Below the pieces are notes generated by a model. That model did not search any database, was not told the origin of the DNA, and was given only the letters and a program-made list of their open reading frames with translations. Of a stretch of 64,000 nt of DNA, positions 2,102-42,056 are shown in pieces. The DNA comes from Escherichia phage JLBYU24. The stretch lies in the sequence record OK272476.1, one strand, 5' to 3'. How positions within the stretch are numbered: position 1 is the stretch's first letter; the number at the start of each line of letters is the position of its first letter. A program made the position numbers and the translations under genes.

Positions 2102-3117
2102 TGTGTTGCCTCTACATATAACTGATTTGCATATTGAATAAGTGCTTCACGATCAGAATCAGTGATGTCTGGAATTGCATTAATGTATTCTTCCATCAAC
2201 GTCTGAAGAGATTGAACTTCAACTTCTTCACTGTCATCTGACTCGACAGAGTTATCAATCTTTGACACAACTCGTAATGAATGCACAACTTTTTCTAGTT
2301 CAGATTCGAACTTCGTCAGATTTTTGTCTACTTCAGTTACTATAACACGTACTGATAGATTTGTAAAATCTTTATAGTCAATTTTTCCTTTAAATGGATA
2401 ATGAATTCTACGGTGCCAGGTAGTATTGTTTGGAATAAATTCCATTCGTTCTGTTTCTGTATCAAACATCCAGAATCCACGAGGGTCATTCTCGTCACCT
2501 GCAGTTAGTGTCCATGGTGTCCCAATATATCTGACGTTAGCAGCCTCAGAGATAGTATGGAAGTGACCAGACCACACCTCTTTATAAGTCTTAAGGAAAT
2601 CAGGTTCAAGACCGTGAGATTTCATTCCTTTATAAAAATAAAATCCATTCAGCTCCCAGTGACCAACACAAAAAGAAGCAGATGAAGTTTTGATGTGTTC
2701 AAGAATTTCACCAGTATTTTCTTCGCACATCCAAGGAATCAAATCAATCAAACACCCGTCAAAATCTACTGTAGTAGGCTTATCATATACTTTAACATTA
2801 GGATATTTAGCCAAAAGCTCAGTAGAGGCATTTGGAGTTAAAGTATTTTTAAAGTGCATATCATGGTTTCCTACAACAGTATGTAGGGTAATACCAGCAT
2901 CATCAAGCATTTGAACTATTTCACGAGCGAACTCCATAGTTTTATGTGTGATTGCTTTTCGCACATCAAAAATATCGCCGTATTGAATCCATGTAGTAAT
3001 TCCATTTTTCTTAGAATATTCTATTGCTTGTTTAATTCCATCCAACTGAATAGATTGAACCCACTCATCATCGGCTTTAACGCCTAAATGCCAATCACCT
3101 AAATTTAAAATTTTCAT
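2098..3117 (-). CDS. 47: Recombination endonuclease subunit gp47 (Mre11/SbcD-like phosphoesterase)
   Basis: 339 aa; calcineurin-like motifs LGDWHLG, GNHD, GHWE, GHFH; adjacent to 46. Confidence 0.93.
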   Translation of the reverse strand: MKILNLGDWHLGVKADDEWVQSIQLDGIKQAIEYSKKNGITTWIQYGDIFDVRKAITHKTMEFAREIVQMLDDAGITLHTVVGNHDMHFKNTLTPNASTELLAKYPNVKVYDKPTTVDFDGCLIDLIPWMCEENTGEILEHIKTSSASFCVGHWELNGFYFYKGMKSHGLEPDFLKTYKEVWSGHFHTISEAANVRYIGTPWTLTAGDENDPRGFWMFDTETERMEFIPNNTTWHRRIHYPFKGKIDYKDFTNLSVRVIVTEVDKNLTKFESELEKVVHSLRVVSKIDNSVESDDSEEVEVQSLQTLMEEYINAIPDITDSDREALIQYANQLYVEATQ

Positions 3118-3293: not shown

Positions 3294-4496
3294 TTATTTT
3301 GTAATAATGTCAAACTGTTCTTTAAAGCAGAAGCTTGAATCTTGATGCTGATACAAAAATTCATATGCTTTTTCTCGCTCACGGTCATAAAGAGCTCGGT
3401 CAGATGACAGTTCTTTAATATGTTCAAATGTTGATTCCATGTCATTTTCATCAAACCAAATGATACCGCTATCATGCGAGGTCAAAGGATTATTATCAAC
3501 ACGGAATTTTAAATTTTCGCCAGTAGATTTCCAAAATACCGGAATTGTTCCACATGCACCAAGCTCGAGATGAGTATATTCTAAAGAACGTTGTAGATAT
3601 TTTTTATCCAACTTACTCAACTGATAACCAAAACCGGATTTACTCATGCGTTCAAGCATTTCGCTATTTACATAACGGTCAAGAATTTGCGTTGGCAAAT
3701 TAGGAGCAATTTTAATTTGGTCTACTTGATGAAGACGATAATACTCGTATGGAATTCCTTTTTCTTTAATAGGAATAAACGCTGGAGAACGTTCCAGACC
3801 TTCCATAATAGTACTTAGTCCTGCAGGTTTAAGATGTTTTTCATGAAAATCAAACATCTGATAAAAACCTTTCCATGTAGTAGTACGACCAATCCAACGG
3901 TTGATATTCATGTTAATTTCAGAAACATCTTTCCAGTAGGTTGATCGAACCTTCGCAATATCCATCGGAGGCTGAAAGTTATATACTGTCGGCGCTTCTT
4001 CAATATCATCAAACAGAGAAACTGTTTCAGGATACCACTCTTTCATCAGAACTTTATTAAAATCACCATTATCAGAATGGCTAAAAATAACATCAGCTCG
4101 ACGAACAGTTTCTTCTAATCCCAAATTTCGACGCAAAGAAAGAGAAGAATGGTCATGTTGATAAACTACAATACGAACAGAAGGTTTAATGTTATCAATA
4201 ATTTTTTTATAGTTATTAATCGTGTCTTCTTCAACCGAAGTAGCAGGAACCGAATTGATAATTAGAATATCACAATCATTTACCAGCTTAAGTGTTTTAT
4301 CATATTCTTTTGCCAATAAAACCGGAATTGAAAATGATTTATAATCATGCGCGCAATTACGAGTAAATGATTTATCTTTAGCATAAACCAAAGTTACTTC
4401 ATGACCATTTTTAATAAACCAATCACGTTGCTCGAGTGAGAATTTTGTTACACCACAACCTTCAAGACCTCGAGCCATAAAAATACATACTTTCAT
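3294..4496 (-). CDS. a-gt: DNA alpha-glucosyltransferase
   Basis: 400 aa, recalled near-identity to T4 alpha-gt, T4 position between 47 and 55. Confidence 0.9.
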   Translation of the reverse strand: MKVCIFMARGLEGCGVTKFSLEQRDWFIKNGHEVTLVYAKDKSFTRNCAHDYKSFSIPVLLAKEYDKTLKLVNDCDILIINSVPATSVEEDTINNYKKIIDNIKPSVRIVVYQHDHSSLSLRRNLGLEETVRRADVIFSHSDNGDFNKVLMKEWYPETVSLFDDIEEAPTVYNFQPPMDIAKVRSTYWKDVSEINMNINRWIGRTTTWKGFYQMFDFHEKHLKPAGLSTIMEGLERSPAFIPIKEKGIPYEYYRLHQVDQIKIAPNLPTQILDRYVNSEMLERMSKSGFGYQLSKLDKKYLQRSLEYTHLELGACGTIPVFWKSTGENLKFRVDNNPLTSHDSGIIWFDENDMESTFEHIKELSSDRALYDREREKAYEFLYQHQDSSFCFKEQFDIITK

Positions 4497-4520
4497 TTAA
4501 TATCCTCTTTGTTTTGGTTT

Positions 4521-7132: not shown

Positions 7133-7348
7133 TTAAATTTTCCAGTTACCATTTTCATCAATAAATTTAATCCAGTCATTTACTGACCACTTAGTTGTAT
7201 CGCCTTTTGGAGTAACATTTAAAGTGTATAACCCCTGCTTAAAAAGCATTCGTTTGATATTCATATTTTCCTCAGCTGTAACGATAACACTCGTTTGATT
7301 TGCGCTTAGCAACTCGTTGAGATGTATTGTAATCAAAATCATCGTCAA
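7133..7348 (-). CDS. Hypothetical protein (start uncertain, possibly 7267)
   Basis: ORF track; overlaps next ORF if first ATG used. Confidence 0.45.
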   Translation of the reverse strand: MTMILITIHLNELLSANQTSVIVTAEENMNIKRMLFKQGLYTLNVTPKGDTTKWSVNDWIKFIDENGNWKI

Positions 7349-7565
7349 TGTAAACTGATTTTTTCAACTTTCTTACTTCACCACGTAATTGACGATTTAG
7401 CTCATCTTTAACTTCTGAATCAATGCCTTTCATTCTACGCCATTTATCAGAGCGAAAAATGTTTTCAACCATATCTTTATGACTTACACCATCAGGAGCT
7501 TTACGCTTTCCGAAATAGTCATAATCACGAACTTTTAAGTCTTTACGACGATACGTTTTACCCAT
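7272..7565 (-). CDS. Hypothetical basic protein
   Basis: ORF 7272..7610 trimmed to Met at 7565 (MGKTYRRKD...) to remove overlap with upstream ORF. Confidence 0.55.
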   Translation of the reverse strand: MGKTYRRKDLKVRDYDYFGKRKAPDGVSHKDMVENIFRSDKWRRMKGIDSEVKDELNRQLRGEVRKLKKSVYIDDDFDYNTSQRVAKRKSNECYRYS

Positions 7566-7770: not shown

Positions 7771-7800
7771 ATAATACCACGGTTTGAACTTGTTGTAAAC
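7771..7800 (-). promoter_or_regulatory. T4-type early promoter
   Basis: Minus strand GTTTAC (7795-7800), 18-nt spacer, TATTAT (7771-7776); AT-rich upstream. Confidence 0.5.
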
Positions 7801-9008: not shown

Positions 9009-10822
9009 TGGTGTTTAACCCTATGCATGATTTCTTTATTTTTACCGAGATTAAATCCGCGCTCGTTCGGATTTCCCAAATAACCACATGTTCTTCTTAT
9101 GGTATTCATCTTTTTAGGATCAGTTTCTCCACAAATAGAACAAACAAATCCGTTTTCAGTAGGAGTCATTTCATGAGTACTTCCACACGTAAAACATTTA
9201 TCTACTGGCATATTAACACCAAAATAATCTAAATGTTGTGCAGCATAATCCCACACGGCCTCAAGACCTTTTAAGTTATTTTTCATATCAGGAAGTTCAA
9301 CATAAGAAATGTGACCACCTGTCGCAATGAAATGATATGGCGCTTCACGAGAAATCTTTTCAAACGGAGTAATATTTTCTTCTACTGAAACATGGAAACT
9401 GTTAGTGTACCAGCCTTTATCAGTAACATCCTTTACACTTCCATATTTCTCAGTATCAAGTTTACAGAAGCGATAACAAAGGTTTTCAGCAGGTGTAGAA
9501 TACAAGCTAAAAGCAAAACCAGTTCTTTCAGTCCACTGCTTAAGACGAGCATTCATTTTAGTTAAAATTTCCTGTCCAATATCACGACCGACAAGAATAT
9601 TCAATTCGTGAATACCAATGTATCCTAAGGACACTGAACTTCTACCGTTTTTAAATAACTCAATTATGTCGTCATCAGGTTTAAGACGGACCCCGAATGC
9701 ACCTTCTTGGTAAAGAATAGGAGCAACAGTCGCTTTAACTCCTTTTAATGAACTAATTCTACACATCAATGCTTCAAAACACAAATCCATTCGTTCATTG
9801 AACAATTCGGCAAATTTCTGTTCATTGAACTGTGTTCCAATATAAGAATCTAATGCAATACGAGGAAGATTCAGTGTTACAACGCCAAGATTATTACGTC
9901 CATCAAGAATTTCATTACCAGTCGAATCTTTCCATACGCTCAAGAAACTGCGGCAACCCATTGGAGAAACAGGAATAGATGAACCTGTGATAGCTTTATT
10001 GTTCTTAGCTGAAATAATATCAGGATACATTCTTTTGCTTGCACACTCTAGAGCAAGCTGTTTAATATCATAGTTCGGATCGTCTTTGTAAAGATTAACA
10101 CCTTCTTCAACGAACATAACAAGCTTAGGGAAAATAGGAGTTATCCCATCACGACCGAGACCTTTAATACGATTTTTCAGAATTGCTTTCTGAATCATTC
10201 GTTCAGTCCAGTCAGTTCCCGTGCCAAATGTAATTGTTACAAAAGGCGTTTGTCCATTTGAACTAAAGAGAGTATTTACTTCATATTCATAAGCTTGGAA
10301 CGCATCGTATACGTCTTTTTCTGTTTTAGATTGGGCATAATTCAACGCATCAGCGATTTGCCATTTTTCTGCATCCTCAATATGTTTTGCATAGGTGCGT
10401 TTAACATAAGGAGAAAGGACTTTGTCTACATTTGCAAAAGTCGTTCCACCGTATTGATGGGAAGCAACCTGTGCAGTAATTTGTGCCATAATTGCAGTAG
10501 CAACACCGATTGATTTAGGAGTTTCAATCTGTGCATTACCGAGCTTAAATCCGTTCTCAAGCATTCCTTTTAAATCTACTAAACAGCAATTAGTAAATGG
10601 AAGAGCAGGGGAATAATCAATATCATGGAAATGAATAATTCCGCTTTCATGCGCTTTCATAATAAAAGACGGGACCATATTTTTGGCAATGTGTTTAGAC
10701 ACAATACCAGCCATAAGGTCCCGTTGAGTTGGAAAAACACGAGAATCTTTATTAGCATTCTCGTTCAAAAGGTCTTTATTAGTTTTATGAATCAATCCTT
10801 CAATTTCTTTTTCAATTGTCAT
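9005..10822 (-). CDS. nrdD: Anaerobic ribonucleoside-triphosphate reductase (class III), uninterrupted
   Basis: 605 aa, C-terminal glycyl-radical motif RRTCGY and Zn-ribbon cysteines CFTCGS...CSIC. Confidence 0.95.
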   Translation of the reverse strand: MTIEKEIEGLIHKTNKDLLNENANKDSRVFPTQRDLMAGIVSKHIAKNMVPSFIMKAHESGIIHFHDIDYSPALPFTNCCLVDLKGMLENGFKLGNAQIETPKSIGVATAIMAQITAQVASHQYGGTTFANVDKVLSPYVKRTYAKHIEDAEKWQIADALNYAQSKTEKDVYDAFQAYEYEVNTLFSSNGQTPFVTITFGTGTDWTERMIQKAILKNRIKGLGRDGITPIFPKLVMFVEEGVNLYKDDPNYDIKQLALECASKRMYPDIISAKNNKAITGSSIPVSPMGCRSFLSVWKDSTGNEILDGRNNLGVVTLNLPRIALDSYIGTQFNEQKFAELFNERMDLCFEALMCRISSLKGVKATVAPILYQEGAFGVRLKPDDDIIELFKNGRSSVSLGYIGIHELNILVGRDIGQEILTKMNARLKQWTERTGFAFSLYSTPAENLCYRFCKLDTEKYGSVKDVTDKGWYTNSFHVSVEENITPFEKISREAPYHFIATGGHISYVELPDMKNNLKGLEAVWDYAAQHLDYFGVNMPVDKCFTCGSTHEMTPTENGFVCSICGETDPKKMNTIRRTCGYLGNPNERGFNLGKNKEIMHRVKHQ

Positions 10823-11974: not shown

Positions 11975-12079
11975 TTAAGTCATTTATCGTCGGTTCATTA
12001 TATACTGTTTCTTCATCAGTGTAAACCGGTTCTTCCGGCTCTGGCTCTACTGTTTCCCATCTAGCCGCCCACCAAGGTT

Positions 12080-14672: not shown

Positions 14673-15674
14673 TTACTTAATTAACTGTAAAGCTTGTTCA
14701 AGACGATCAAGACGATTAACGGATTCTTCCCAAATCTTTTTAGCCTGCTCATATTCTTTCTGCGCTTTATTAGAAATTTCTAGAACTTCTTTATAAGCTT
14801 TTTCTAGTGCAATAACTTCTGGACGAATTTCTACCGGTTCAGGTGAATCGTCAAGATTATCCATTAGTTCCTCAAGGGTAGTTTCTTCTTTAGGAGTATT
14901 CACAATTTCCTCACATTTTTGTTGATAAATTTCTTTATCAGTAGGTGAATAAGCACATTTCACTTCACGAAGACTAATTACAATTTTATATCCTTCCCAT
15001 CCGCATATATTCTTAAAAGGATATGTATGAATATTTTCTACTGTTTCCATACAAAGTAATGCAGTCTCTAACTGACGAGTTATAGTGCTAGCAATTGAGA
15101 AAAATTTATTAATATTCTTTTGGTTAGTTTCTGGTGTAAAAAATCCATAATTCACAAAAATAGCTACTTTATTTTTATCAAGCTCATATTCTTTTACGAT
15201 AATCATATCAGAAGCCAAAGGATGAATTTGACGATAATCGCCATAACATAATTTAGAAGCTGATTTTAGAATTTGTCCTTTGAAAAGTCTGAAATTACTA
15301 ATCCAACGACGAGTAAAAATATTCTCAGGGTCTTCTTTATTATTAAGATGATAAGAATTAACATCACCGAACCAATTATATCCTACTACATCTTTAGTTC
15401 GTTTAATTTCTTTCCCAAAATTACCAAGAATATCCCGATTAACCAAATATGAAAGAAGACGAGACTCTTTAAAAGTTTTTTTGATAACATCTTTATCTAC
15501 ACGGCTAGAAATTTTACGAATTTCATGAATAAATTTAGTAGAAGAAACAATACTTGCATCAACACTATTGAGCCATTGATTGATAATAGAAAGAACGATA
15601 TTTTGACCAAACATCGGTATAGCTTTATCATCAATAACGCTATTGAATGATTTGATATATTCGTTACGAGTCAT
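14673..15674 (-). CDS. Hypothetical protein with C-terminal coiled-coil tail
   Basis: ORF 14673..15704 trimmed to Met at 15674 (MTRNEYIKSF, RBS GAGGAG) because the first 10 codons overlie a promoter; C-terminal coiled coil. Confidence 0.7.
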   Translation of the reverse strand: MTRNEYIKSFNSVIDDKAIPMFGQNIVLSIINQWLNSVDASIVSSTKFIHEIRKISSRVDKDVIKKTFKESRLLSYLVNRDILGNFGKEIKRTKDVVGYNWFGDVNSYHLNNKEDPENIFTRRWISNFRLFKGQILKSASKLCYGDYRQIHPLASDMIIVKEYELDKNKVAIFVNYGFFTPETNQKNINKFFSIASTITRQLETALLCMETVENIHTYPFKNICGWEGYKIVISLREVKCAYSPTDKEIYQQKCEEIVNTPKEETTLEELMDNLDDSPEPVEIRPEVIALEKAYKEVLEISNKAQKEYEQAKKIWEESVNRLDRLEQALQLIK

Positions 15675-15702
15675 ATTAATCTCCTCAGTAGAAAGTAAGA
15701 AC

Positions 15703-15732
15703 ATTATACCACATCCTTGTGGCGAAGTAAAC
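15703..15732 (-). promoter_or_regulatory. T4-type early promoter
   Basis: Minus strand GTTTAC (15727-15732), 18-nt spacer, tgTGgTATAAT (-10 at 15703-15708). Confidence 0.5.
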
Positions 15733-18102: not shown

Positions 18103-18630
18103 TTATGCGAGTACCGTCTTTAACCGTTCTTCAAACTTCCGAAGAGTATTTTGGCGTTCAGCTCTTTGCTTTTTGTAAGTTTCAATACGCTCTGAAATGA
18201 GAGTGTATCGTTCATTTACTGATTCTTTCATAAAATCAGGAATTTCACGAGAAGCTTTAATCTCGTCAAATTTATCAATAACAGCTTGCTCTTCAGCAAT
18301 TAAGTTATCATACATCAAAATATCTTTCTTGATGAACTCAATATCTTCTTGAGTTACACGAGATAATTTAGATGCTTTATCCTTTTTGTACTGTTCGTTA
18401 GTATCACGAGACCAGTGTAATGTACGATTTTTATTCGTATTCTTGTAAATTTCTACAATACCAATCTCATCAATAATAACGATCCAATTCCAACGGGATT
18501 TGTAAATTTGTCCTCCATCAACAGTGATTTCACCTCCAATTGAGATGTCATTAAAGAACTTGCTTTGTGCTTCTGATTTAAATTTACCATCGTTGTAATT
18601 TACCAGGTTGAAAATATCTTTAGCGTTCAT
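18103..18630 (-). CDS. Hypothetical protein (175 aa)
   Basis: ORF 18103..18690 trimmed to Met at 18630 (MNAKDIF, RBS GGAGG); upstream 20 codons overlie a promoter. Confidence 0.65.
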   Translation of the reverse strand: MNAKDIFNLVNYNDGKFKSEAQSKFFNDISIGGEITVDGGQIYKSRWNWIVIIDEIGIVEIYKNTNKNRTLHWSRDTNEQYKKDKASKLSRVTQEDIEFIKKDILMYDNLIAEEQAVIDKFDEIKASREIPDFMKESVNERYTLISERIETYKKQRAERQNTLRKFEERLKTVLA

Positions 18631-18658
18631 TTTCTGTTCCTCCGTAGTTGATAGTTGT

Positions 18659-18688
18659 ATAGTACCATGGAGGAACAGTCTTGTAAAC
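18659..18688 (-). promoter_or_regulatory. T4-type early promoter
   Basis: GTTTAC (18683-18688), 18-nt spacer, TACTAT (18659-18664); shares motif gttgatagttgtatagtaccatgg with 20351 and 35427. Confidence 0.55.
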
Positions 18689-18690
18689 AA

Positions 18691-20063: not shown

Positions 20064-20120
20064 TTTATTCTCCTTTGATTTGATAGGACTACTATAACAT
20101 AGTCCTATCAGTTTGTATAC

Positions 20121-20321
20121 TTATTTTGACATTTCTTCGATGGCACGACGATACCCGTCACGAACTTCACGAAGAGCTTCAAGGCCACACATAGGCTCGA
20201 TACCAGTAATGTGAACTTGATTAATCTGATACTCTACATCTTCTAACTGAGCGAAAACATAACGACGTTCAGCTGCACACCCAGATTTAGCTTTACCGAA
20301 ACGTTTATTCAAAGTAGTCAT
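20121..20321 (-). CDS. Hypothetical small protein
   Basis: ORF track, directly downstream of an early promoter. Confidence 0.55.
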   Translation of the reverse strand: MTTLNKRFGKAKSGCAAERRYVFAQLEDVEYQINQVHITGIEPMCGLEALREVRDGYRRAIEEMSK

Positions 20322-20359
20322 TTTGTATCTCCAATTTACTCATTTGTTTTGATAGTTGT

Positions 20360-20389
20360 ATAGTACCATAAAGCTTTATGCTTGTAAAC
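20360..20389 (-). promoter_or_regulatory. T4-type early promoter
   Basis: GTTTAC (20384-20389), 18-nt spacer, TACTAT (20360-20365). Confidence 0.55.
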
Positions 20390-20413: not shown

Positions 20414-20437
20414 AAAAAAGGGAGCCCGAAGGCTCCC
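20414..20437 (-). terminator. Rho-independent-type terminator
   Basis: Minus RNA GGGAGCC-UUCG-GGCUCCC followed by UUUUUUAUU, immediately after the stop of ORF 20440..21453. Confidence 0.6.
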
Positions 20438-20439
20438 TA

Positions 20440-21453: not shown

Positions 21454-21923
21454 TCAGCCTTATATTCAATAACAGGACATACTTTAGCTTTACGAGCTTT
21501 TAAAAATTCAACGATAATCGATTTCTTGGGTTGAATAGGCTCAAGTCCATTTTTGATTCGTTCTTCGTTTTGTATAATGAGTTCAATTTCTTTATTGAGC
21601 TTTCGGTCGTTATATTTGTCTAACAACCAGGAAGGACCAATTACCGCCGCGACTGCAATAAGAACCATTATTGATATTGTTAAAATACCTATACCAATTG
21701 AAGCCGGAACTAATGTCCATAGACTACTAAAGACAAAGAATTTAATTAAAATTTCTTGGCCAATGATTGCGGCACCTGCTAAAGTTGCAAATCCAACAAT
21801 TGAAACAGCTAATACCGGGAGAAACGTTTTCCAAAAATAAGCACATAACGTTTTTGGACGATTCCATGTGCTGTTAAATGCCGAGTAAATTTTAAAGTGC
21901 CAAGAGTTTTCATTAATAATCAT
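21450..21923 (-). CDS. Membrane protein (about three predicted TM helices)
   Basis: 157 aa, hydrophobic spans FLPVLAVSIVGFATLAGAAIIG and LVPASIGIGILTISIMVLIAVAAVIG. Confidence 0.65.
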   Translation of the reverse strand: MIINENSWHFKIYSAFNSTWNRPKTLCAYFWKTFLPVLAVSIVGFATLAGAAIIGQEILIKFFVFSSLWTLVPASIGIGILTISIMVLIAVAAVIGPSWLLDKYNDRKLNKEIELIIQNEERIKNGLEPIQPKKSIIVEFLKARKAKVCPVIEYKAE

Positions 21924-21925
21924 AA

Positions 21926-22447
21926 TTATCCTTTCATTGAAGGCGTAACGGTTGTTAAATACTTAATCATCGCTTCAGCTTCTGATTTTGATAATGAAAT
22001 TTCTTCATTGTTTTGACGAATAGAAATAAAATCCGGATGACGGTCACCACCAGCTTTTAAAACACATATATAAGTATCAGTTTCATCTTCAATATTTGAA
22101 ATGATTGAAGCAGTTCCACATGAATGCGGTTTTTGATAAATCAATACAGCTTTTCTTCCGCCATTTGACTGTTCATAAACTTTTAATACATCAAACAAAT
22201 CACTTCTTTTATCAATAGCTAAAATGTTATTTTCATCTTCAATGTTAAATCCTTCGGATACTTCATAAAGTGTTACCCATAAATCACCGATGTCAATAAC
22301 AGCATTTACTTTTCCACGGCTTTCAAGAGTATGACAAATTTTCTTGATTTCGTCATAACTCATTTTAATAATATCATCTCCTTGACTAAGAAAGATGTCA
22401 TTTTTAAATTCAACACGAATTAAACCGCTTTCACTTGAAATAAACAT
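21926..22447 (-). CDS. Hypothetical protein, tandem paralog 1
   Basis: 173 aa; shares FNIE-D/S-E, and C-terminal K-YL--V-P-M with ORF 22454..22999. Confidence 0.65.
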   Translation of the reverse strand: MFISSESGLIRVEFKNDIFLSQGDDIIKMSYDEIKKICHTLESRGKVNAVIDIGDLWVTLYEVSEGFNIEDENNILAIDKRSDLFDVLKVYEQSNGGRKAVLIYQKPHSCGTASIISNIEDETDTYICVLKAGGDRHPDFISIRQNNEEISLSKSEAEAMIKYLTTVTPSMKG

Positions 22448-22999: not shown

Positions 23000-23131
23000 T
23001 GTATACTCCTCTGAATCATATCAATAATGTTGTTCACCAGATTATAAGTAAACATTGGGTAATTATATTGAATCATCACATACACAACAAACAAAATTTT
23101 CATTCTCTTCTCCTTGACAGTTGACAAGATT

Positions 23132-23161
23132 ACTATACCATAACCTTGCCAACTTGTAAAC
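23132..23161 (-). promoter_or_regulatory. Putative T4-type early promoter
   Basis: GTTTAC (23156-23161), 18-nt spacer, TATAGT (23132-23137). Confidence 0.45.
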
Positions 23162-23523: not shown

Positions 23524-23763
23524 TTAAACTCTCGTATTATGATCGATAATTTCATCAAGAAACATATCTAACGCTTCTAAAGCATTATCAACTTTAGCTT
23601 CAAGTTCATCAATACCTTTATTTGCAATGCCTGACGAAAACCAAGCAAAGTCACTAAGTTCCTCGTCTGCTTTACGAATTAAAGCTACTAATTCCTTAAT
23701 TTTATCTGCTTGTTCGATACTAATCATTATTCCACCACATATGAAAGAGAGAATATTGCACAC
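23524..23763 (-). CDS. Hypothetical protein
   Basis: ORF track. Confidence 0.55.
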
Positions 23764-23915
23764 GCCATGTGAGTTGCAACTTCATCACACATATTATAAC
23801 GTTTCTTAAGAAGTTCTACAAGTTCTTCACTAGTAACTTCATCCATGTCGACGAAAAAATCACCATTAATGATGACGTAGATATTTCCTTCTTGATTGAG
23901 TGCTTCAATTTTCAT
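23727..23915 (-). CDS. Hypothetical protein (62 aa)
   Basis: ORF 23727..23960 trimmed to Met at 23915 ([17 protein letters not shown]); upstream part overlies a promoter. Confidence 0.5.
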
Positions 23916-23943
23916 GATGTTCTCCTCTTTATCCGATGGTTGT

Positions 23944-23973
23944 ATAGTATCACAGCTCAAATGGAAAGTAAAC
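23944..23973 (-). promoter_or_regulatory. T4-type early promoter
   Basis: GTTTAC (23968-23973), 18-nt spacer, TACTAT (23944-23949). Confidence 0.5.
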
Positions 23974-23984
23974 CGGTAAAATGA

Positions 23985-24005
23985 AAAAAGTCTCCCGAAG
24001 GAGAC
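23985..24005 (-). terminator. Rho-independent-type terminator
   Basis: Minus RNA GUCUCC-UUCG-GGAGAC followed by UUUUUUC, just after ORF 24011..24397. Confidence 0.6.
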
Positions 24006-24010
24006 TAACG

Positions 24011-28110: not shown

Positions 28111-28137
28111 GTTATTCTCCTCTTAACTGATAGAAAA

Positions 28138-28167
28138 ATTATACCACAGTCAAGAGGAAAAGTAAAC
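28138..28167 (-). promoter_or_regulatory. T4-type early promoter upstream of regB
   Basis: GTTTAC (28162-28167), 18-nt spacer, gTGgTATAAT (28138-28143). Confidence 0.55.
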
Positions 28168-30790: not shown

Positions 30791-31207
30791 TTAAATGTAA
30801 ATATTTTTACCGTAATACTTATACCAATGTGGTTTCATTAAAATTTTTTCATCAAGTCGTTGTTGACTCAATTTAATAGCTGATTTGCATGGATTATAAT
30901 CATTTTTCCATTCTACTGGAATATCGCTGATGTCAGGAACTTCAGTATCTTTTATACTGAACCCGCGTTTTAAGCATTCCGTTATAATGTCTAATTGACG
31001 CTTTCGCAAAAATTCTAACTTATCGTAAAAGAACGTAACATGACCAGAACCTAAAATAAACTCGGAAGATATTTTAAAATCTTTAACGCGCTTACCGTTT
31101 GCCACATGCTTACGAACTATACCAAAAACACGCGGCAATTCACGGTATTCTGCGATTAAATGTTGATCAGCAAGTTCAGATACTAAAGTCAAATTAATAC
31201 GAGTCAT
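30791..31207 (-). CDS. denV: Endonuclease V (pyrimidine-dimer DNA glycosylase)
   Basis: 138 aa, [17 protein letters not shown]...WYKYYGK recalled as T4 endo V. Confidence 0.9.
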
Positions 31208-31232
31208 TTTATCCCTCCAATTAACTGTGAAT

Positions 31233-31262
31233 ATACTATCACAATTCTAGGAGAAAGTAAAC
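31233..31262 (-). promoter_or_regulatory. Putative T4-type early promoter
   Basis: GTTTAC (31257-31262), 18-nt spacer, TAGTAT. Confidence 0.4.
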
Positions 31263-34666: not shown

Positions 34667-34710
34667 AGCATTTCCTTTAGTTAATTAAGGGTTTTATAAT
34701 CCGTGGGAGT

Positions 34711-34740
34711 ATTATACTCTACTCCCAAGAGTTTGTAAAC
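34711..34740 (-). promoter_or_regulatory. T4-type early promoter
   Basis: GTTTAC (34735-34740), 18-nt spacer, TATAAT (34711-34716). Confidence 0.55.
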
Positions 34741-35073: not shown

Positions 35074-35099
35074 AATGTTCTCCTCAAAGTTATAGGCTC

Positions 35100-35129
35100 A
35101 TAATATCTCAATCATGAGCCTGTGTAAAC
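35100..35129 (-). promoter_or_regulatory. T4-type early promoter
   Basis: GTTTAC (35124-35129), 18-nt spacer, TATTAT. Confidence 0.5.
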
Positions 35130-35393
35130 TTATTTCATATTATTGAAATATTCTTCAGCAATTTCATCATTATCATGATAAACTTTAGAAGACAGTTTAA
35201 CATAACTTTCAGCAGTGAACATGTTAATCACAACCTTTACAGTATACCACTGACCATCTTCATTACCCATTACTGCGTAAGTTTCAAACAACGGATGATC
35301 AGGACCGATAACTTTAATATCATTCACTGTACGACCGAAATCTTCTGAAACACATTTCATAAAGAAGTTGAACAGCTCACCGTAATTATCCAT
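35130..35393 (-). CDS. Hypothetical protein (87 aa)
   Basis: ORF 35130..35456 trimmed to Met at 35393 (MDNYGELF, RBS GGAGA); upstream codons overlie a promoter. Confidence 0.6.
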   Translation of the reverse strand: MDNYGELFNFFMKCVSEDFGRTVNDIKVIGPDHPLFETYAVMGNEDGQWYTVKVVINMFTAESYVKLSSKVYHDNDEIAEEYFNNMK

Positions 35394-35436
35394 TTCATTC
35401 TCCAAGTTGTTTTCTGTATCAGTAGTTGATAGTTGT

Positions 35437-35466
35437 ATAGTACCATGGAAGGACAAGGATGTAAAC
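35437..35466 (-). promoter_or_regulatory. T4-type early promoter
   Basis: GTTTAC (35461-35466), 18-nt spacer, TACTAT. Confidence 0.5.
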
Positions 35467-36498: not shown

Positions 36499-36574
36499 TG
36501 GTCGAGGCAGTAGGGATCGAACCTACGACCTAGGACTTAGAAGGTCCTTGCTCTTCCTTCTGAGCTATGCCTCG
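36499..36574 (-). tRNA. tRNA-Arg (anticodon UCU), CCA encoded
   Basis: Manual fold: acceptor CGAGGCA/TGCCTCG, anticodon stem AGGAC/GTCCT, loop CTTCTAA, T-loop TTCGATC. Confidence 0.85.
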
Positions 36575-36578
36575 GATT

Positions 36579-36653
36579 TGGCGGACGTGATAGGATTCGA
36601 ACCTATAACCAATCGCTTAACAGGCGATCGCTCTGCCATTGAGCTACACATCC
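36579..36653 (-). tRNA. tRNA-Asn (anticodon GUU), CCA encoded
   Basis: Manual fold: all stems canonical; anticodon loop CTGTTAA. Confidence 0.8.
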
Positions 36654-36657
36654 AAAT

Positions 36658-36744
36658 TGGTGGGGAGTGATGGAGTCGAACCACCCGAGTCGCAATGACA
36701 ATGGATTTACAGTCCACACCGCTACCTCTACGGGATAACTCCCC
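36658..36744 (-). tRNA. tRNA-Tyr (anticodon GUA), long variable arm, CCA encoded
   Basis: Manual fold: acceptor GGGGAGT/ACTCCCC, anticodon loop CTGTAAA, long variable arm. Confidence 0.7.
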
Positions 36745-36756
36745 TAATTCATAATT

Positions 36757-36831
36757 TGGTGGCCCTGGGTGGAATTGAACCACCATCTGGCGATTATGAG
36801 TCGCTTGCTTGAACCTTCCAGCTACAGGGCC
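36757..36831 (-). tRNA. tRNA with CAU anticodon (Ile-lysidine type as in T4, or Met), CCA encoded
   Basis: Manual fold: acceptor GGCCCTG/CAGGGCC, anticodon loop CTCATAA. Confidence 0.75.
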
Positions 36832-36832
36832 T

Positions 36833-36908
36833 TGGTGCTGATTGACGGAATCGAACCGCCGACCTTCTCATTACAAGTGAGTTGCTCTACCTACTGAGCT
36901 AAATCAGC
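36833..36908 (-). tRNA. tRNA-Thr (anticodon UGU), CCA encoded
   Basis: Manual fold: acceptor GCTGATT/AATCAGC, D-stem GCTC/GAGC, anticodon loop CTTGTAA. Confidence 0.8.
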
Positions 36909-36913
36909 AAAAC

Positions 36914-37003
36914 TGGCGGAGGCGATAGGATTTGAACCTATGAGTCGCCGGAGCGACTGCCGGTTTTCAAGACCGGTGCATTAAACCACTCTGCCACGCC
37001 TCC
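36914..37003 (-). tRNA. tRNA-Ser (anticodon UGA), long variable arm, CCA encoded
   Basis: Manual fold: acceptor GGAGGCG/CGCCTCC, anticodon stem CCGGT/ACCGG, loop CTTGAAA. Confidence 0.8.
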
Positions 37004-37009
37004 AAATAT

Positions 37010-37660
37010 TTATATATTGTTAATTTGATTTAGAATTCTTTTTGCTTGAGTATGACTTACGCCAATATGCTTAGCATATTTAGACAATTCGCCACGTTTA
37101 GAAAAATCATATAATTTAGAAATTTCTATTCTTCTTTTTCTTTCATCCGCAGAAACTTTTGCTTCGTTTGCTTTTGCTATTTTACGTTTAGCTTCTTGAG
37201 AATGAGTTTTACCAGCAAAGCCATTCTTCATTAATCCATTTGAAGACCATCCTTTTAATTTTCCGTTAGAATGTGCCTTTTTAACACCCAATGAAATTAA
37301 TTCGCGTTGCTGATCTGTCATAGGATAATTATTTATATGGTCCCATCCACCTTCACCTCCAAGTTTTAAATTATACACATCTGGTCTATTTAAAAACTCT
37401 TCTGTGACAATATTTTTCTCGGCTTCAAGCATAGATTCTTTATCGTCAAAATACTCTAATATTTCTTTAGAAAAATTTTCTATACCATATTTATCTTGGG
37501 CTCTTTTTAATAATTTACCAGAACCCATATATCCATCATCTAAATTTTCGGTAGAATGCACACCAATATAAATTTTATTATTAATTTTATTTGTTATTTT
37601 ATAAAGATAAAAATGCATATCAGTCCCTAATAAAGAACTGAGCGTCTCACGACGAGTCAT
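37010..37660 (-). CDS. GIY-YIG homing endonuclease (Seg-like) inserted between the tRNA subclusters
   Basis: 216 aa; GIY-YIG motifs FYLYKITN...KIYIGVH, conserved R/E/N positions, basic C-terminal DNA-binding region; start may be Met at 37618. Confidence 0.8.
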   Translation of the reverse strand: MTRRETLSSLLGTDMHFYLYKITNKINNKIYIGVHSTENLDDGYMGSGKLLKRAQDKYGIENFSKEILEYFDDKESMLEAEKNIVTEEFLNRPDVYNLKLGGEGGWDHINNYPMTDQQRELISLGVKKAHSNGKLKGWSSNGLMKNGFAGKTHSQEAKRKIAKANEAKVSADERKRRIEISKLYDFSKRGELSKYAKHIGVSHTQAKRILNQINNI

Positions 37661-37664
37661 AAAT

Positions 37665-37738
<74 letters not shown>

Positions 37739-37743
37739 AAATT

Positions 37744-37832
37744 TGGTGCGAGAAGTGGGACTCGAACCCACAAGGAAATCATTCCGCAGCATTTTAAGTG
37801 CTGTGCCTTTACCAATTTGACCATTCTCGCGC
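37744..37832 (-). tRNA. tRNA-Leu (anticodon UAA), long variable arm, CCA encoded
   Basis: Manual fold: acceptor GCGCGAG/CTCGCGC, anticodon loop CTTAAAA. Confidence 0.8.
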
Positions 37833-37904
37833 TGGGAATAAAGGACTCGAACCTTTGCATCCTGGAATCAAAATCCAGTGCCTTACCAACTTGGCTAATT
37901 CCCA
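37833..37904 (-). tRNA. tRNA-Gln (anticodon UUG), 3' end abuts tRNA-Leu, CCA not encoded
   Basis: Manual fold: U1-A72 acceptor TGGGAAT/ATTCCCA, anticodon stem CTGGA/TCCAG, loop TTTTGAT. Confidence 0.75.
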
Positions 37905-39367: not shown

Positions 39368-39395
39368 TTTATTCTCCTCGGTAGTTGATAGGGTA

Positions 39396-39425
39396 ATAGT
39401 ATCACTACCCTATCTAAAAGTAAAC
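39396..39425 (-). promoter_or_regulatory. T4-type early promoter
   Basis: GTTTAC (39420-39425), 18-nt spacer, TACTAT; spacer contains palindrome GGGTAATAGTATCACTACCC. Confidence 0.5.
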
Positions 39426-39659
39426 TTATTTTTTACGAAAAATTGATTTATTTTCTGCTGCCCATTTTTCAATAACTGCAGCAGGACCAGTAACAACAAT
39501 TTTATCACCGTAATCTTCTGCGGCGAGTTGACCGAAATTATCTAATGCATCACGAAGAACTCCATGAGGCATTTCACCCATTTTATCTTTCTTGCCGGTG
39601 TAAATAAACTCAACTTTTACATCAGAAGATTCAGCGATAAACTCTTTGAAAGTTTTCAT
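39426..39659 (-). CDS. Internal-protein-like small protein (77 aa)
   Basis: Starts MKTFKEFIAE (IP capsid-targeting-sequence-like); ORF-track entry 39426..39725 trimmed because upstream codons overlie the promoter. Confidence 0.7.
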   Translation of the reverse strand: MKTFKEFIAESSDVKVEFIYTGKKDKMGEMPHGVLRDALDNFGQLAAEDYGDKIVVTGPAAVIEKWAAENKSIFRKK

Positions 39660-39693
39660 TTTGATTTCCATTTGGTTTTGTTTTGATAGAGTA

Positions 39694-39723
39694 ATAGTAT
39701 CACTACTAAAACCCTGTGTAAAC
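39694..39723 (-). promoter_or_regulatory. T4-type early promoter
   Basis: GTTTAC (39718-39723), 18-nt spacer, TACTAT; ~65-nt region near-duplicated at 40004-40070. Confidence 0.5.
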
Positions 39724-39735
39724 AACTTTGTGAAA

Positions 39736-40003: not shown

Positions 40004-40033
40004 TAATTAATTTTGATGAGATAATAGTATCAC
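40004..40033 (-). promoter_or_regulatory. T4-type early promoter
   Basis: GTTTAC (40028-40033), 18-nt spacer, TACTAT. Confidence 0.5.
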
Positions 40034-40065
40034 TACCTCATCAACGTGTAAACAACTTTGTGAAA

Positions 40066-40763: not shown

Positions 40764-41476
40764 TATAGTACCTTTAGTGTATTTTTAATTTTAGAAAAAA
40801 GTTCTTCAAGAGAACCATCGTTTGTAATTACTAAATCGCCATCACGAATTGGCAATCCAGCTTCTGTAATATGAGTATCATTGGATTTTTGACCAGGACG
40901 AACTACATGAATTACTGTAGCACCCATCGCCCTAGCCGCATCCATTTCATGATCTTGACGAGTATCAGGAACGATATAATAATCATAACCTGAGTTAAAT
41001 TTATCAAGATAATCTAAAGCAAATAATTTTACCCAATACATGCGGTCGAAGTTATTAACAATCAAATCCGTACCTAGGGCTTGCATCAGACGACGGACTG
41101 ACCATTGATCTTCAATATTATTTATAACGTCAGCAATCTTGTTAAATGCTACGAAATTAACTGCGTCATCAAAAACAAACACACCTTTAATTGGGCTTTT
41201 ACTATTAAGATAGCAAAATGCTTGTTCCATAATCGTAATTACTTCTAATTTAGTCAGATTTAAATTAGTTTCACGATCATAGTCAATTCCTTCAAACTCT
41301 TTACGAGTTAAACAAGGATAGTCAGTGTTTGCTGCAAATACACCCCATGCATAAGCCAATGCATCTTTAATAGGACCAGCAAGTTGATATTTAACTGCAG
41401 AATAATTATTCATGATAAAATCTGCAGTAGTATCTTTTCCACTACGCTTTACACCACTTAAAAAGATTAGTTTCAT
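40763..41476 (-). CDS. 1: Deoxynucleoside monophosphate kinase
   Basis: 237 aa; P-loop LSGVKRSGKDT; T4 gene order. Confidence 0.92.
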
Positions 41477-41525
41477 ATGTTTCTCCTCAAATTTAGTTAA
41501 GATTATAACACATGAAACTGAAGCA

Positions 41526-42056
41526 TTAAACTTCTGCTATAATTTTACCATCTTTTTCTACTTGAAAATACGTATAAGGAATCGTTGCTGTACATACTAA
41601 AGCCGGGTCTGAATCTTCCGTGTAGCTAAATTCTACTTCAGACAGGTCAGAAACCCAAGGCTTATAAAAATTTATTGACATCACGATTTCAGTTTTACTA
41701 TTATCTAAAATGTAAAGCGTAATGTATTCAGGACCTGTTTTTTGGGCAGTATTTTCGCCTGTAAGATAGTTACTAGTTCCTAACATCCATTCATACATTC
41801 CTATCCACGACTTAAGCTCTTCATCAACTATAAATCTCACGATGAGTGGGTCGTACTCAAATGTAACTCCTGGACGTTGTGCTCTGCCCAGTCCAAACGG
41901 CCCAGTCACGGTATCAGTAACAGGTATCCTAATTCCTGGAATAGGAACTGACTGAGCATTTAAAGTAAAAGCAGATGTAGTATTACTATGCGGTATTGAT
42001 ACTACAAAGTTAGTTGTATTTGCTTGGTTAAAAATTTGTTGTAGTGCTTGCGACAT
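41526..42056 (-). CDS. 3: Tail completion protein gp3
   Basis: ORF 41526..42137 trimmed to Met at 42056 (RBS GAGGA), giving 176 aa as recalled for T4 gp3. Confidence 0.8.
   Translation of the reverse strand: MSQALQQIFNQANTTNFVVSIPHSNTTSAFTLNAQSVPIPGIRIPVTDTVTGPFGLGRAQRPGVTFEYDPLIVRFIVDEELKSWIGMYEWMLGTSNYLTGENTAQKTGPEYITLYILDNSKTEIVMSINFYKPWVSDLSEVEFSYTEDSDPALVCTATIPYTYFQVEKDGKIIAEV

Follow-up and report, generated by a model that had tools for sequence, protein, structure and literature searches.

Introduction

Work on the early promoters of bacteriophage T4, and on their GTTTAC -35 element, goes back decades. The hexamer lies at -36 to -31 (PMC1524935), and for the phage pair PST and T4 the consensus has been given as TTTACW-N17-TAYWAT (PMC4122927). 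Such "uber" promoters, which combine UP, -35, TGn and -10 elements, out-compete the promoters of the host and are stimulated further by ADP-ribosylation of the alpha subunit by Alt (PMC2988021). Primer-extension products have been obtained on T4 DNA, both in vivo and in vitro, for Pe40.4 and Pe35.3, and start coordinates are given for Pe40.4 (41,225), Pe35.3 (35,662) and Pe57954 (57,954) (PMC6024815).

Two further systems bear on the sites described here. Promoter-early stem-loop (PeSL) cassettes have been reported from T4-like phages (Arbiol et al. 2010, PMC2839356; Comeau et al. 2014, PMC4122927). At the T4 genes e, soc, 49 and I-TevI, read-through RNA pairs the Shine-Dalgarno (SD) sequence, whereas RNA started at an internal late promoter lacks the 5' arm of the hairpin and is translatable (PMC3014915).

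The window analysed here is a 64,000-nt stretch of Escherichia phage JLBYU24 (OK272476.1), in which a first-pass annotation had read a repeated GTTTAC/TAnnnT motif as a family of early promoters. This reading matches the published T4 consensus, and the sites are orthologous to T4 promoters; they are very probably the early promoters (Pe) of a T4-like phage and depend on sigma-70. Their activity in JLBYU24 itself, and the role of the hairpins that accompany them, are what we infer from the comparisons below.

Results

Genome context

The window belongs to a Tequatrovirus, a T4-like coliphage. The 4-kb stretch around 18103-18690 matches hundreds of Tequatrovirus genomes at 95-99% identity, and the window is 92-98% identical to T4 and collinear with it over an interval that begins at 33.3 kb and reaches at least 79 kb of the T4 genome; the alignment is interrupted where T4 has homing-endonuclease genes or where the small ORFs differ. 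The G+C content is about 35%. The sign of the GC skew flips at about 43-44 kb, at the boundary between the early and middle genes, on the minus strand, and the late genes, on the plus strand. A true MotA-box site is present nearby, at 41502-41531.

Occurrence of the motif

The pattern GTTTAC-N18-TAnnnT has 16 exact matches in the window, all on the minus strand and confined to 7.3-40.1 kb, compared with a chance expectation of 0.84 (mean of 100 dinucleotide shuffles; maximum 4). The first-pass annotation had counted at least 14 such minus-strand sites, and the sequence at 18659-18688 reads as it described. The late-gene half of the window contains no match, all 16 being on the early-gene strand, and short intergenic gaps hold 14 of them. 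T4 shows the same strand bias (16 minus and 0 plus in 49 kb), as do five other phages.

Allowing one mismatch gave 37 matches where 26.6 are expected by chance, so that most of these are noise. Exact GTTTAC with a spacer of N17 or N19 yielded just two plus-strand matches, neither with supporting context, and both were judged to be chance occurrences. A generic sigma-70 scan for TTGACA/TATAAT was not enriched (99 found, 86.7 expected), and support for the family consequently rests on the family-specific pattern. The position-weight-matrix search suggested by the first-pass annotation was built and run, with 75 columns from the 14 intergenic sites, but the matrix was overfitted (leave-one-out scores of 1-49) and returned no sites beyond its training set at a score of at least 8; relaxed patterns were used instead.

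The features are listed in Table 1, and sites are cited below by the higher of their two coordinates. Four sites outside the main set of exact intergenic matches merit comment. The intragenic site in gene 55.5 is a real promoter, given its match to T4 Pe40.4, and the one-mismatch site in gene 47 belongs to the family, given its match to Pe35.3. A second one-mismatch member, upstream of nrdC.10, is real-looking, as the full context is present. The exact match inside gene 49.1 is the doubtful member: TGn and a hairpin are missing, the upstream flank is G+C-rich, and the site could be the one match expected by chance from the shuffles.

Table 1. Early-promoter sites and associated hairpins in the window
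Feature	Coordinates	Strand	Details
nrdC.8 early promoter	18659-18688	-	GTTTAC 18688-18683; TGG + TACTAT 18664-18659; SD GGAGG; ATG 18630
nrdC.8 hairpin	18634-18678	-	5' arm CTGTTCCTCC in spacer; 3' arm GGAGGAACAG over SD; z = -5.4
ipI upstream early promoter	40024-40053	-	14-bp hairpin 40013-40044 around -10
Promoter of extra internal-protein-like gene	39694-39723	-	ATG 39659, MKTFKEF...; without T4 orthologue
trna.4 early promoter	39396-39425	-	12-bp hairpin 39387-39414
e.8 early promoter	35437-35466	-	Exact block CCATGGTACTATACAACTATCAAC; true ATG 35393
e.7 early promoter	35100-35129	-	TATTAT, no TGn; 11-bp hairpin 35094-35121
e.6 early promoter	34711-34740	-	TATAAT, no TGn; 11-bp hairpin 34700-34730
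denV early promoter, directly after gene e	31233-31262	-	denV ATG 31207
denV hairpin, split by promoter	31212-31256	-	Outer stem TTTCTCC/GGAGGGA covers denV SD
regB early promoter	28138-28167	-	TGG + TATAAT; ATG 28110; 130-nt region 100% identical to T4
regB hairpin, 18 pairs	28115-28161	-	5' arm in spacer; 3' arm over SD GAGGAG; z = -4.9
mobD.5 early promoter	23944-23973	-	True ATG 23915; canonical terminator 23989-24006 just upstream
mobD.2 early promoter	23132-23161	-	T4 Pe57954 orthologue; 13-bp covarying stem 23120-23153 around TGGTATAG
Promoter of extra 66-aa ORF (20121-20321)	20360-20389	-	Canonical terminator 20419-20438 just upstream
nrdC.10 upstream promoter, one mismatch	20091-20120	-	GTATAC-N18-TATAGT with TGT (TGTTATAGT); 12-bp hairpin 20081-20110
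nrdC.4 early promoter	15703-15732	-	True ATG 15674; TATAATG overlap of ATG and -10
55.6 early promoter	7771-7800	-	TGG + TATTAT
Early promoter within 3' part of gene 55.5	7326-7355	-	T4 Pe40.4 orthologue (start 41,225)
One-mismatch promoter inside gene 47	2339-2368	-	TTTTAC-N18-TATAGT with TGT; T4 Pe35.3 orthologue (start 35,662)
Exact pattern match inside gene 49.1	11997-12026	-	Predicted +1 11990, 34 nt to pin ATG

Promoter architecture

A -35 element GTTTAC at -36 to -31 is found at the 16 exact sites and, with one mismatch, at two more. The 18-nt spacer given by the first-pass annotation holds as a description of the GTTTAC-N18 pattern, but not as a sigma-70 spacer, for it counts in the G. 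Placed in sigma-70 register, the -35 hexamer is TTTACA or TTTACT and the spacer has the optimal length of 17 nt, which gives TTTAC(A/T)-N17-TAYWAT. GTTTAC, TGn and TAnnnT are conserved in the Mosigvirus orthologues, while the spacers diverge.

The -10 hexamers of the 16 sites are TACTAT (seven), TATAAT (four), TATTAT (two), and TAGTAT, TATAGT and TACAAT (one each). Every variant retains T-12, A-11 and T-7, the positions that established structural work has shown to matter most to sigma-70. An extended -10 motif (TGn at -15 to -13) is present in 12 of the 14 intergenic sites; the two that lack it have TATTAT (e.7) or TATAAT (e.6), and the weaker hexamers TACTAT, TAGTAT and TATAGT are always accompanied by TGn. 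The upstream flank is A/T-rich, the 26 nt preceding the sites averaging 78% A+T against 66% (sd 0.09) at random control positions, and A-tracts or T-tracts upstream of 11 of 15 sites mark a putative A/T-rich UP element at -40 to -60. The prevalence of non-consensus -10 hexamers, which had been called notable, is thus unsurprising: the key bases are kept, TGn and the A/T-rich flank are present, and the variants fall within the published consensus.

Downstream, an A stands seven nucleotides past the -10 hexamer in 16 of the 18 family members; the predicted +1 positions include 18652, 28131, 23125 and 31226. An SD sequence and ATG follow 19-24 nt past the predicted +1 in 11 of the 14 intergenic sites, and the predicted leader is 19-24 nt long in 12 of 17 family members. 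The 24-nt block GTTGATAGTTGTATAGTACCATGG, said to be often present, is found without mismatch just twice, at 18647 and 35425, and with three mismatches at 20348; a short CTATCAA-like motif around +1 is a much commoner shared element. Some sites share longer modules. The -10/leader module is 100% identical between sites 35466 and 18688, the upstream modules of which are unrelated, and the upstream module is 96% identical between 40053 and 39723. In addition, promoter cassettes have TACTAT in common by descent.

Correspondence with T4 promoters

With the exception of 39723, all promoter sites have counterparts in T4 that precede named early genes, though at 39425 and 34740 the T4 alignment covers part of the promoter only. 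On this basis the sites were assigned to ipI, trna.4, e.8, e.7, e.6, denV, regB, mobD.5, mobD.2, nrdC.10, nrdC.8, nrdC.4 and 55.6. The nrdC.8 promoter, with its predicted +1 at A 18652, is 97% identical to T4 53,943-53,914. Promoter features are absent from the T4 GenBank and RefSeq records and from that of the close relative phage R5505.

The first-pass annotation had placed transcript 5' ends about 7 nt past the -10 element, and in T4 this prediction is effectively borne out. In the T4 orthologues of sites 7355, 2368 and 23161, counting seven bases on from the -10 hexamer leads precisely to the published starts at 41,225, 35,662 and 57,954, respectively, although these coordinates may partly derive from the T4 promoter list and not from nucleotide-resolution mapping (PMC6024815).

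Several sites coincide with differences in gene content. The single trna.4 promoter of T4 is a chimera, its 5' half corresponding to 39723 and its 3' half to 39425, and in the window these two promoters flank the extra internal-protein-like gene. Similarly, promoters 20389 and 20120 enclose a 66-aa ORF at a place where a single promoter is found in T4. The promoter following gene e (31262) precedes ipIII in T4 and denV in the window, reflecting an e-denV rearrangement.

Open reading frames that translate promoters

A promoter that fills the gap between co-oriented genes will be read as protein by any ORF caller that extends a frame upstream as far as the preceding stop codon. Accordingly, the first 20 codons of ORF 18103-18690, 21 of 35130-35456, 10 of 14673-15704 and 15 of 23727-23960 lie over promoters, as had been noted, and a fifth such ORF is found at 39426-39725. 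The extended N termini are artefacts, which arise when an ORF is opened at whichever start codon comes first after a stop. The peptide HGTIQLSTT, correctly flagged as artefactual, is the translation of CATGGTACTATACAACTATCAACTAC and heads two ORFs that encode unrelated proteins. Starting instead at the downstream Met that follows an SD sequence, also as proposed, the four ORFs encode 175, 87, 333 and 62 aa, the lengths of T4 nrdC.8, e.8, nrdC.4 and mobD.5, respectively. The false 343-aa form of nrdC.4 arises from an ATG that overlaps the -10 hexamer (TATAATG). Two public records annotate this long form (1032 nt), starting at the ATG inside TATAATG, whereas the annotation of phage R5505 has the short forms of both nrdC.8 and nrdC.4.

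Hairpins around the -10 element

At most promoters the spacer is complementary to the transcribed leader, such that the -10 hexamer and +1 lie in or near the loop of a hairpin; at nrdC.8 the loop holds both. Compared with dinucleotide shuffles, the hairpin has z of -2.6 or lower in 9 of 14 promoters. Pairing of each spacer with its own leader averages -12.2 kcal/mol, against -7.9 kcal/mol with the leaders of other promoters, and this preference has a permutation p of about 2e-4 in the window, about 2e-4 in T4, and about 0.004 and 2e-4 in two Mosigvirus genomes.

The stems are maintained while their sequences change. Over the 13 pairs of the mobD.2 stem, pairing reaches 97.7% in a set of ten distinct sequences, and four of the pairs have changed on both sides, whereas registers slid by 1-3 columns give only 21-69% pairing; GTTTAC and TATAGT are fixed in this promoter as the stem sequence turns over. 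The formal pair count was made on mobD.2, which has no indels; an IMG/VR pattern scan for this promoter gave four loci, and the comparative genomes were drawn from a phage collection. The distal stem of regB is TGACTG/CAGTTA, AGTTG/CAACT or GTAAG/CTTAC according to clade; this covariation was read from the sequences and from per-sequence folds, as MAFFT misregistered the arms, the spacer of one clade being 1 nt shorter. The denV stem is TCTCCTGTAG/CTACAGGAGA in T4 and TTCCTCCAAG/CTTGGAGGAA in Mosigvirus, the arms differing but being equally paired.

The hairpins around -10 all lack a U-tract on their 3' side, and none was called as a sense-strand terminator; the terminator role described for PeSL stem-loops is therefore not supported by the sequence here. 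The canonical terminators, at 20419-20438 and 23989-24006, are separate from these hairpins, and each lies just upstream of a promoter.

A possible translational gate at regB, denV and nrdC.8

At three genes the 3' arm of the hairpin covers the SD sequence. Read-through RNA of regB, denV and nrdC.8 is predicted to fold at -14.5 to -22.4 kcal/mol in several clades with the SD paired, whereas the promoter-started RNA is predicted to be essentially unstructured (0 to -2.5 kcal/mol); for nrdC.8 in the window, the predicted values are -20.2 kcal/mol for read-through RNA and 0.0 for the promoter's own transcript. The stems at these genes differ among Tequatrovirus, Mosigvirus and a third clade, yet stay paired. 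The one exception is the Mosigvirus nrdC.8 leader (-13.6 kcal/mol), where the stem closes around -10 and leaves the SD outside.

These folds suggest, tentatively, an early-promoter gate: regB, denV and nrdC.8 might be translatable only from RNA started at their own promoters, with read-through RNA silent, and synthesis would then be limited to the first 2-3 min. We regard this as possible rather than probable. Under such a gate, regB would be translated from own-promoter transcripts only. RNA secondary structure is known to protect against cleavage by RegB, and the GGAG of the regB read-through RNA would for this reason be shielded from the enzyme. A literature search found no description of early-promoter hairpins that sequester the SD, although the older T4 literature may contain one.

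Discussion

Proposed mechanism

The most plausible account of the sites is that unmodified E. coli RNA polymerase would recognise an A/T-rich UP-like flank, (G)TTTAC(A/T), a 17-nt spacer ending in TGn, and TAnnnT. Transcription would start about 7 nt past the -10 element, usually at the A of CTATCAA, so that the leader would have about 22 nt and a strong SD. Each promoter occupies a gap of 60-100 nt between two co-oriented early genes. Most appear to be composite PeSL cassettes in which the spacer is complementary to the leader, so that read-through RNA would fold into a hairpin around -10, whereas promoter-started RNA would be made without the 5' arm. The cassettes also mark sites of gene gain and loss between related phages.

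Alternative explanations

With 65% A+T in the genome, loose sigma-70-like matches as frequent as in shuffles, and most one-mismatch matches attributable to noise, one might take the whole family for a product of chance or composition. The exact pattern says otherwise, as none of the 100 shuffles gave more than four matches, every match is on one strand, the 14 intergenic sites have a fixed SD/ATG geometry, and T4 and Mosigvirus have kept the sites. The bias in strand and position, together with the shuffle control, already refutes this reading, and its probability is negligible. The TGn/-10 part is also common to MotA/AsiA-dependent middle promoters, and a true MotA-box site lies nearby. At the -35 position, however, the sites have GTTTAC and not a MotA box, (a/t)(a/t)TGCTT(t/c)A, centred at -30, and their T4 orthologues are listed as Pe. 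Moreover, the T4 paper regards 1 min post-infection as representing early-promoter activity, with middle transcription barely under way, its explicit statement of 1-min activity being for Pe148.6 alone, outside the window. Middle promoters are thus very improbable. Slightly more can be said for the idea that the blocks owe their conservation chiefly to a role as cassettes for recombination or termination, their promoter likeness being secondary: gene gain and loss junctions fall inside them, as in the chimeric trna.4 promoter of T4 and at the 66-aa ORF; their modules are mosaic, as at 35466 and 18688; and PeSL-mediated shuffling has been published. But the invariant positions are exactly those contacted by sigma-70 (-35, TGn, T-12, A-11 and T-7), whereas the stems vary freely, and the T4 orthologues initiate transcription. 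Recombination is better taken to follow from the repetition of promoter sequence than to compete with promoter function as an explanation, and we consider a primary cassette role highly unlikely.

The remaining alternatives concern not the promoters themselves but what overlaps them. Genuine translation of the extended N termini (for example LFTRLFLHGTIQLSTTEEQK-) would agree with the long nrdC.4 of two public records. Yet the extensions begin upstream of the predicted +1 and so are missing from the promoter's own transcript, no SD precedes them, three of the four start with TTG, and the T4 reference as well as R5505 annotate short forms. That one nucleotide block should yield an identical "peptide" before two unrelated proteins further speaks against translation, for which there remains very little probability. 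The inverted repeats around -10, in turn, overlap the region melted in the open complex, and could act on DNA, as a cruciform or in promoter melting, or be neutral by-products, instead of acting in RNA. Against this, the sense strand has G-T at several stem positions, which would make C-A on the other strand, and the compensatory changes, which include G-U intermediates, fit selection on RNA. Sense folds are also stabler than antisense folds by 1.5-3.5 kcal/mol on average in six genomes, a difference that is weakly significant and confounded by G-over-C skew. A role in DNA, or none, is thus unlikely but deserves some weight.

Significance

The promoter family is already known: these are textbook T4 early promoters in a close T4 relative, and the finding is correct but ordinary. 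Promoter-plus-hairpin cassettes, too, were already described in 2010-2014. The analysis therefore adds little to biology, and its practical value lies in annotation, where starts in promoter gaps should be placed at the Met after the SD sequence; in two or more public records nrdC.4 is annotated with the extension that comes from its promoter. The spacer-to-SD hairpin of regB, denV and nrdC.8 is the sole point that deserves a small experiment. If the gate works as predicted, it would show T4-like phages silencing immediate-early translation despite continuing read-through transcription.

Comparison with known systems

The sites resemble T4 early promoters in all main respects: GTTTAC at -36 to -31, a 17-nt spacer, TGn, TAnnnT, an A/T-rich flank and a position upstream of early genes. 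They are moreover orthologous to T4 promoters, including Pe35.3, Pe40.4 and Pe57954. Nothing essential sets them apart, the differences being the extra promoter 39723 and the split pair 20389/20120, which stem from cassette insertions.

The likeness to PeSL cassettes is similarly close, as early promoters occur together with stem-loops placed between -35 and -10 or across -10, and the units are intergenic, occur in plastic parts of the genome and coincide with insertion/deletion junctions. In RB49-type cassettes, however, the stems consist of a G-tract and a C-tract and have been shown to terminate transcription, whereas those of the window are heterogeneous and have no U-tract.

With the gates of T4 e, soc, 49 and I-TevI, the regB, denV and nrdC.8 sites share a predicted geometry. 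They differ in the promoter, which is late at the T4 genes (TATAAATA) and early and sigma-70-type at the window sites. The timing would differ as well, since the known late-promoter gates delay translation, whereas an early-promoter gate would limit it to the first minutes. The three sites are thus predicted to work like the e/soc/49/I-TevI class without being members of it.

Apparent gene gain or loss at early promoters

The 77-aa gene that separates early promoters 39723 and 39425 (minus-strand sites named by the window coordinate of their 5' end) is without a counterpart in T4, and its N terminus, MKTFKEF, resembles the adjacent ipI-type internal protein. The trna.4 promoter of T4 is a chimera of these two flanking promoters, and from its sequence it looks like the trace of a promoter-promoter recombination through which the cassette was gained or lost. 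A 66-aa ORF, beginning MTTLNKRFGKAKSG, is inserted between a pair of promoter cassettes; at this place T4 carries just one promoter, that of nrdC.10. The ORF is present in phage R5505 as well.

At the e-denV junction (31207-31262, minus strand), comparison with T4 65.3-66.5 kb reveals that the promoter following gene e directly drives denV, an arrangement shared by phages N2 and sb3. In T4, by contrast, e and denV are separated by ipIII and ipII, each preceded by an early promoter. The breakpoints of this rearrangement are located within the promoter and leader.

Features of the window and of two public phage records
Feature	Location	Strand	Remarks
Terminator	20419-20438	-	Canonical G+C-rich hairpin, then T-run; directly upstream of early promoter 20389
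Terminator	23989-24006	-	Canonical G+C-rich hairpin, then T-run; directly upstream of early promoter 23973
66-aa ORF	20121-20321	-	Between two promoter cassettes
tRNA cluster	36499-37904	-	Nine genes: Arg, Asn, Tyr, Met, Thr, Ser, Gly, Leu, Gln
77-aa gene	39426-39659	-	Promoters 39723 and 39425 on its two sides
MotA-box site	41502-41531	-	GTTTAATGCTTCA-N11-TGTTATAAT; TGCTT at about -30
nrdC.4, long form	L010 167..1198		1032 nt; Shigella phage sb3, public annotation
nrdC.4, long form	L011 173..1204		1032 nt; Escherichia phage ECO07P3, public annotation

Promoter and leader elements

Promoters 20389 and 23973 are each paired with a terminator, the hairpin of which is separate from those around the -10 hexamer. 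In a third clade (IMG/VR contigs L021-L023; RegB identity 67-68%), GTTTAC-N18-TACTAT is retained about 70 nt upstream of regB. There, the spacer arm TCTCCTGTAAG is a perfect complement of the Shine-Dalgarno region CTTACAGGAGA, and a second CTTAC copy is predicted to offer an alternative, shorter hairpin.

The first-pass annotation held that certain ORF N termini are translated promoter sequence, and this artefact is indeed found in the public nrdC.4 annotations of sb3 and ECO07P3. A length of 1032 nt, as opposed to the 1002 nt annotated in T4, places the start at an ATG overlapping the -10 hexamer, TATAATG.

Outside the early family, the MotA-box site has the appearance of a T4 middle promoter, judging by its sequence, with the gene 1 Shine-Dalgarno and ATG (MKLIFLSGVKRSGKD) ~20 nt downstream.

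Comparison with T4

Relative to T4, the window lacks two homing-endonuclease genes, mobB and mobC, as well as the nrdD intron with I-TevII, and other sequence stands in place of the mobD region (window positions 4484-4512, 9008/8988, 10284-10287 and 21461-22429). The segB gene, which interrupts the tRNA cluster of T4, is apparently missing here, and the set of nine tRNAs in the window differs from the eight of T4 (Arg, Ile, Thr, Ser, Pro, Gly, Leu and Gln).
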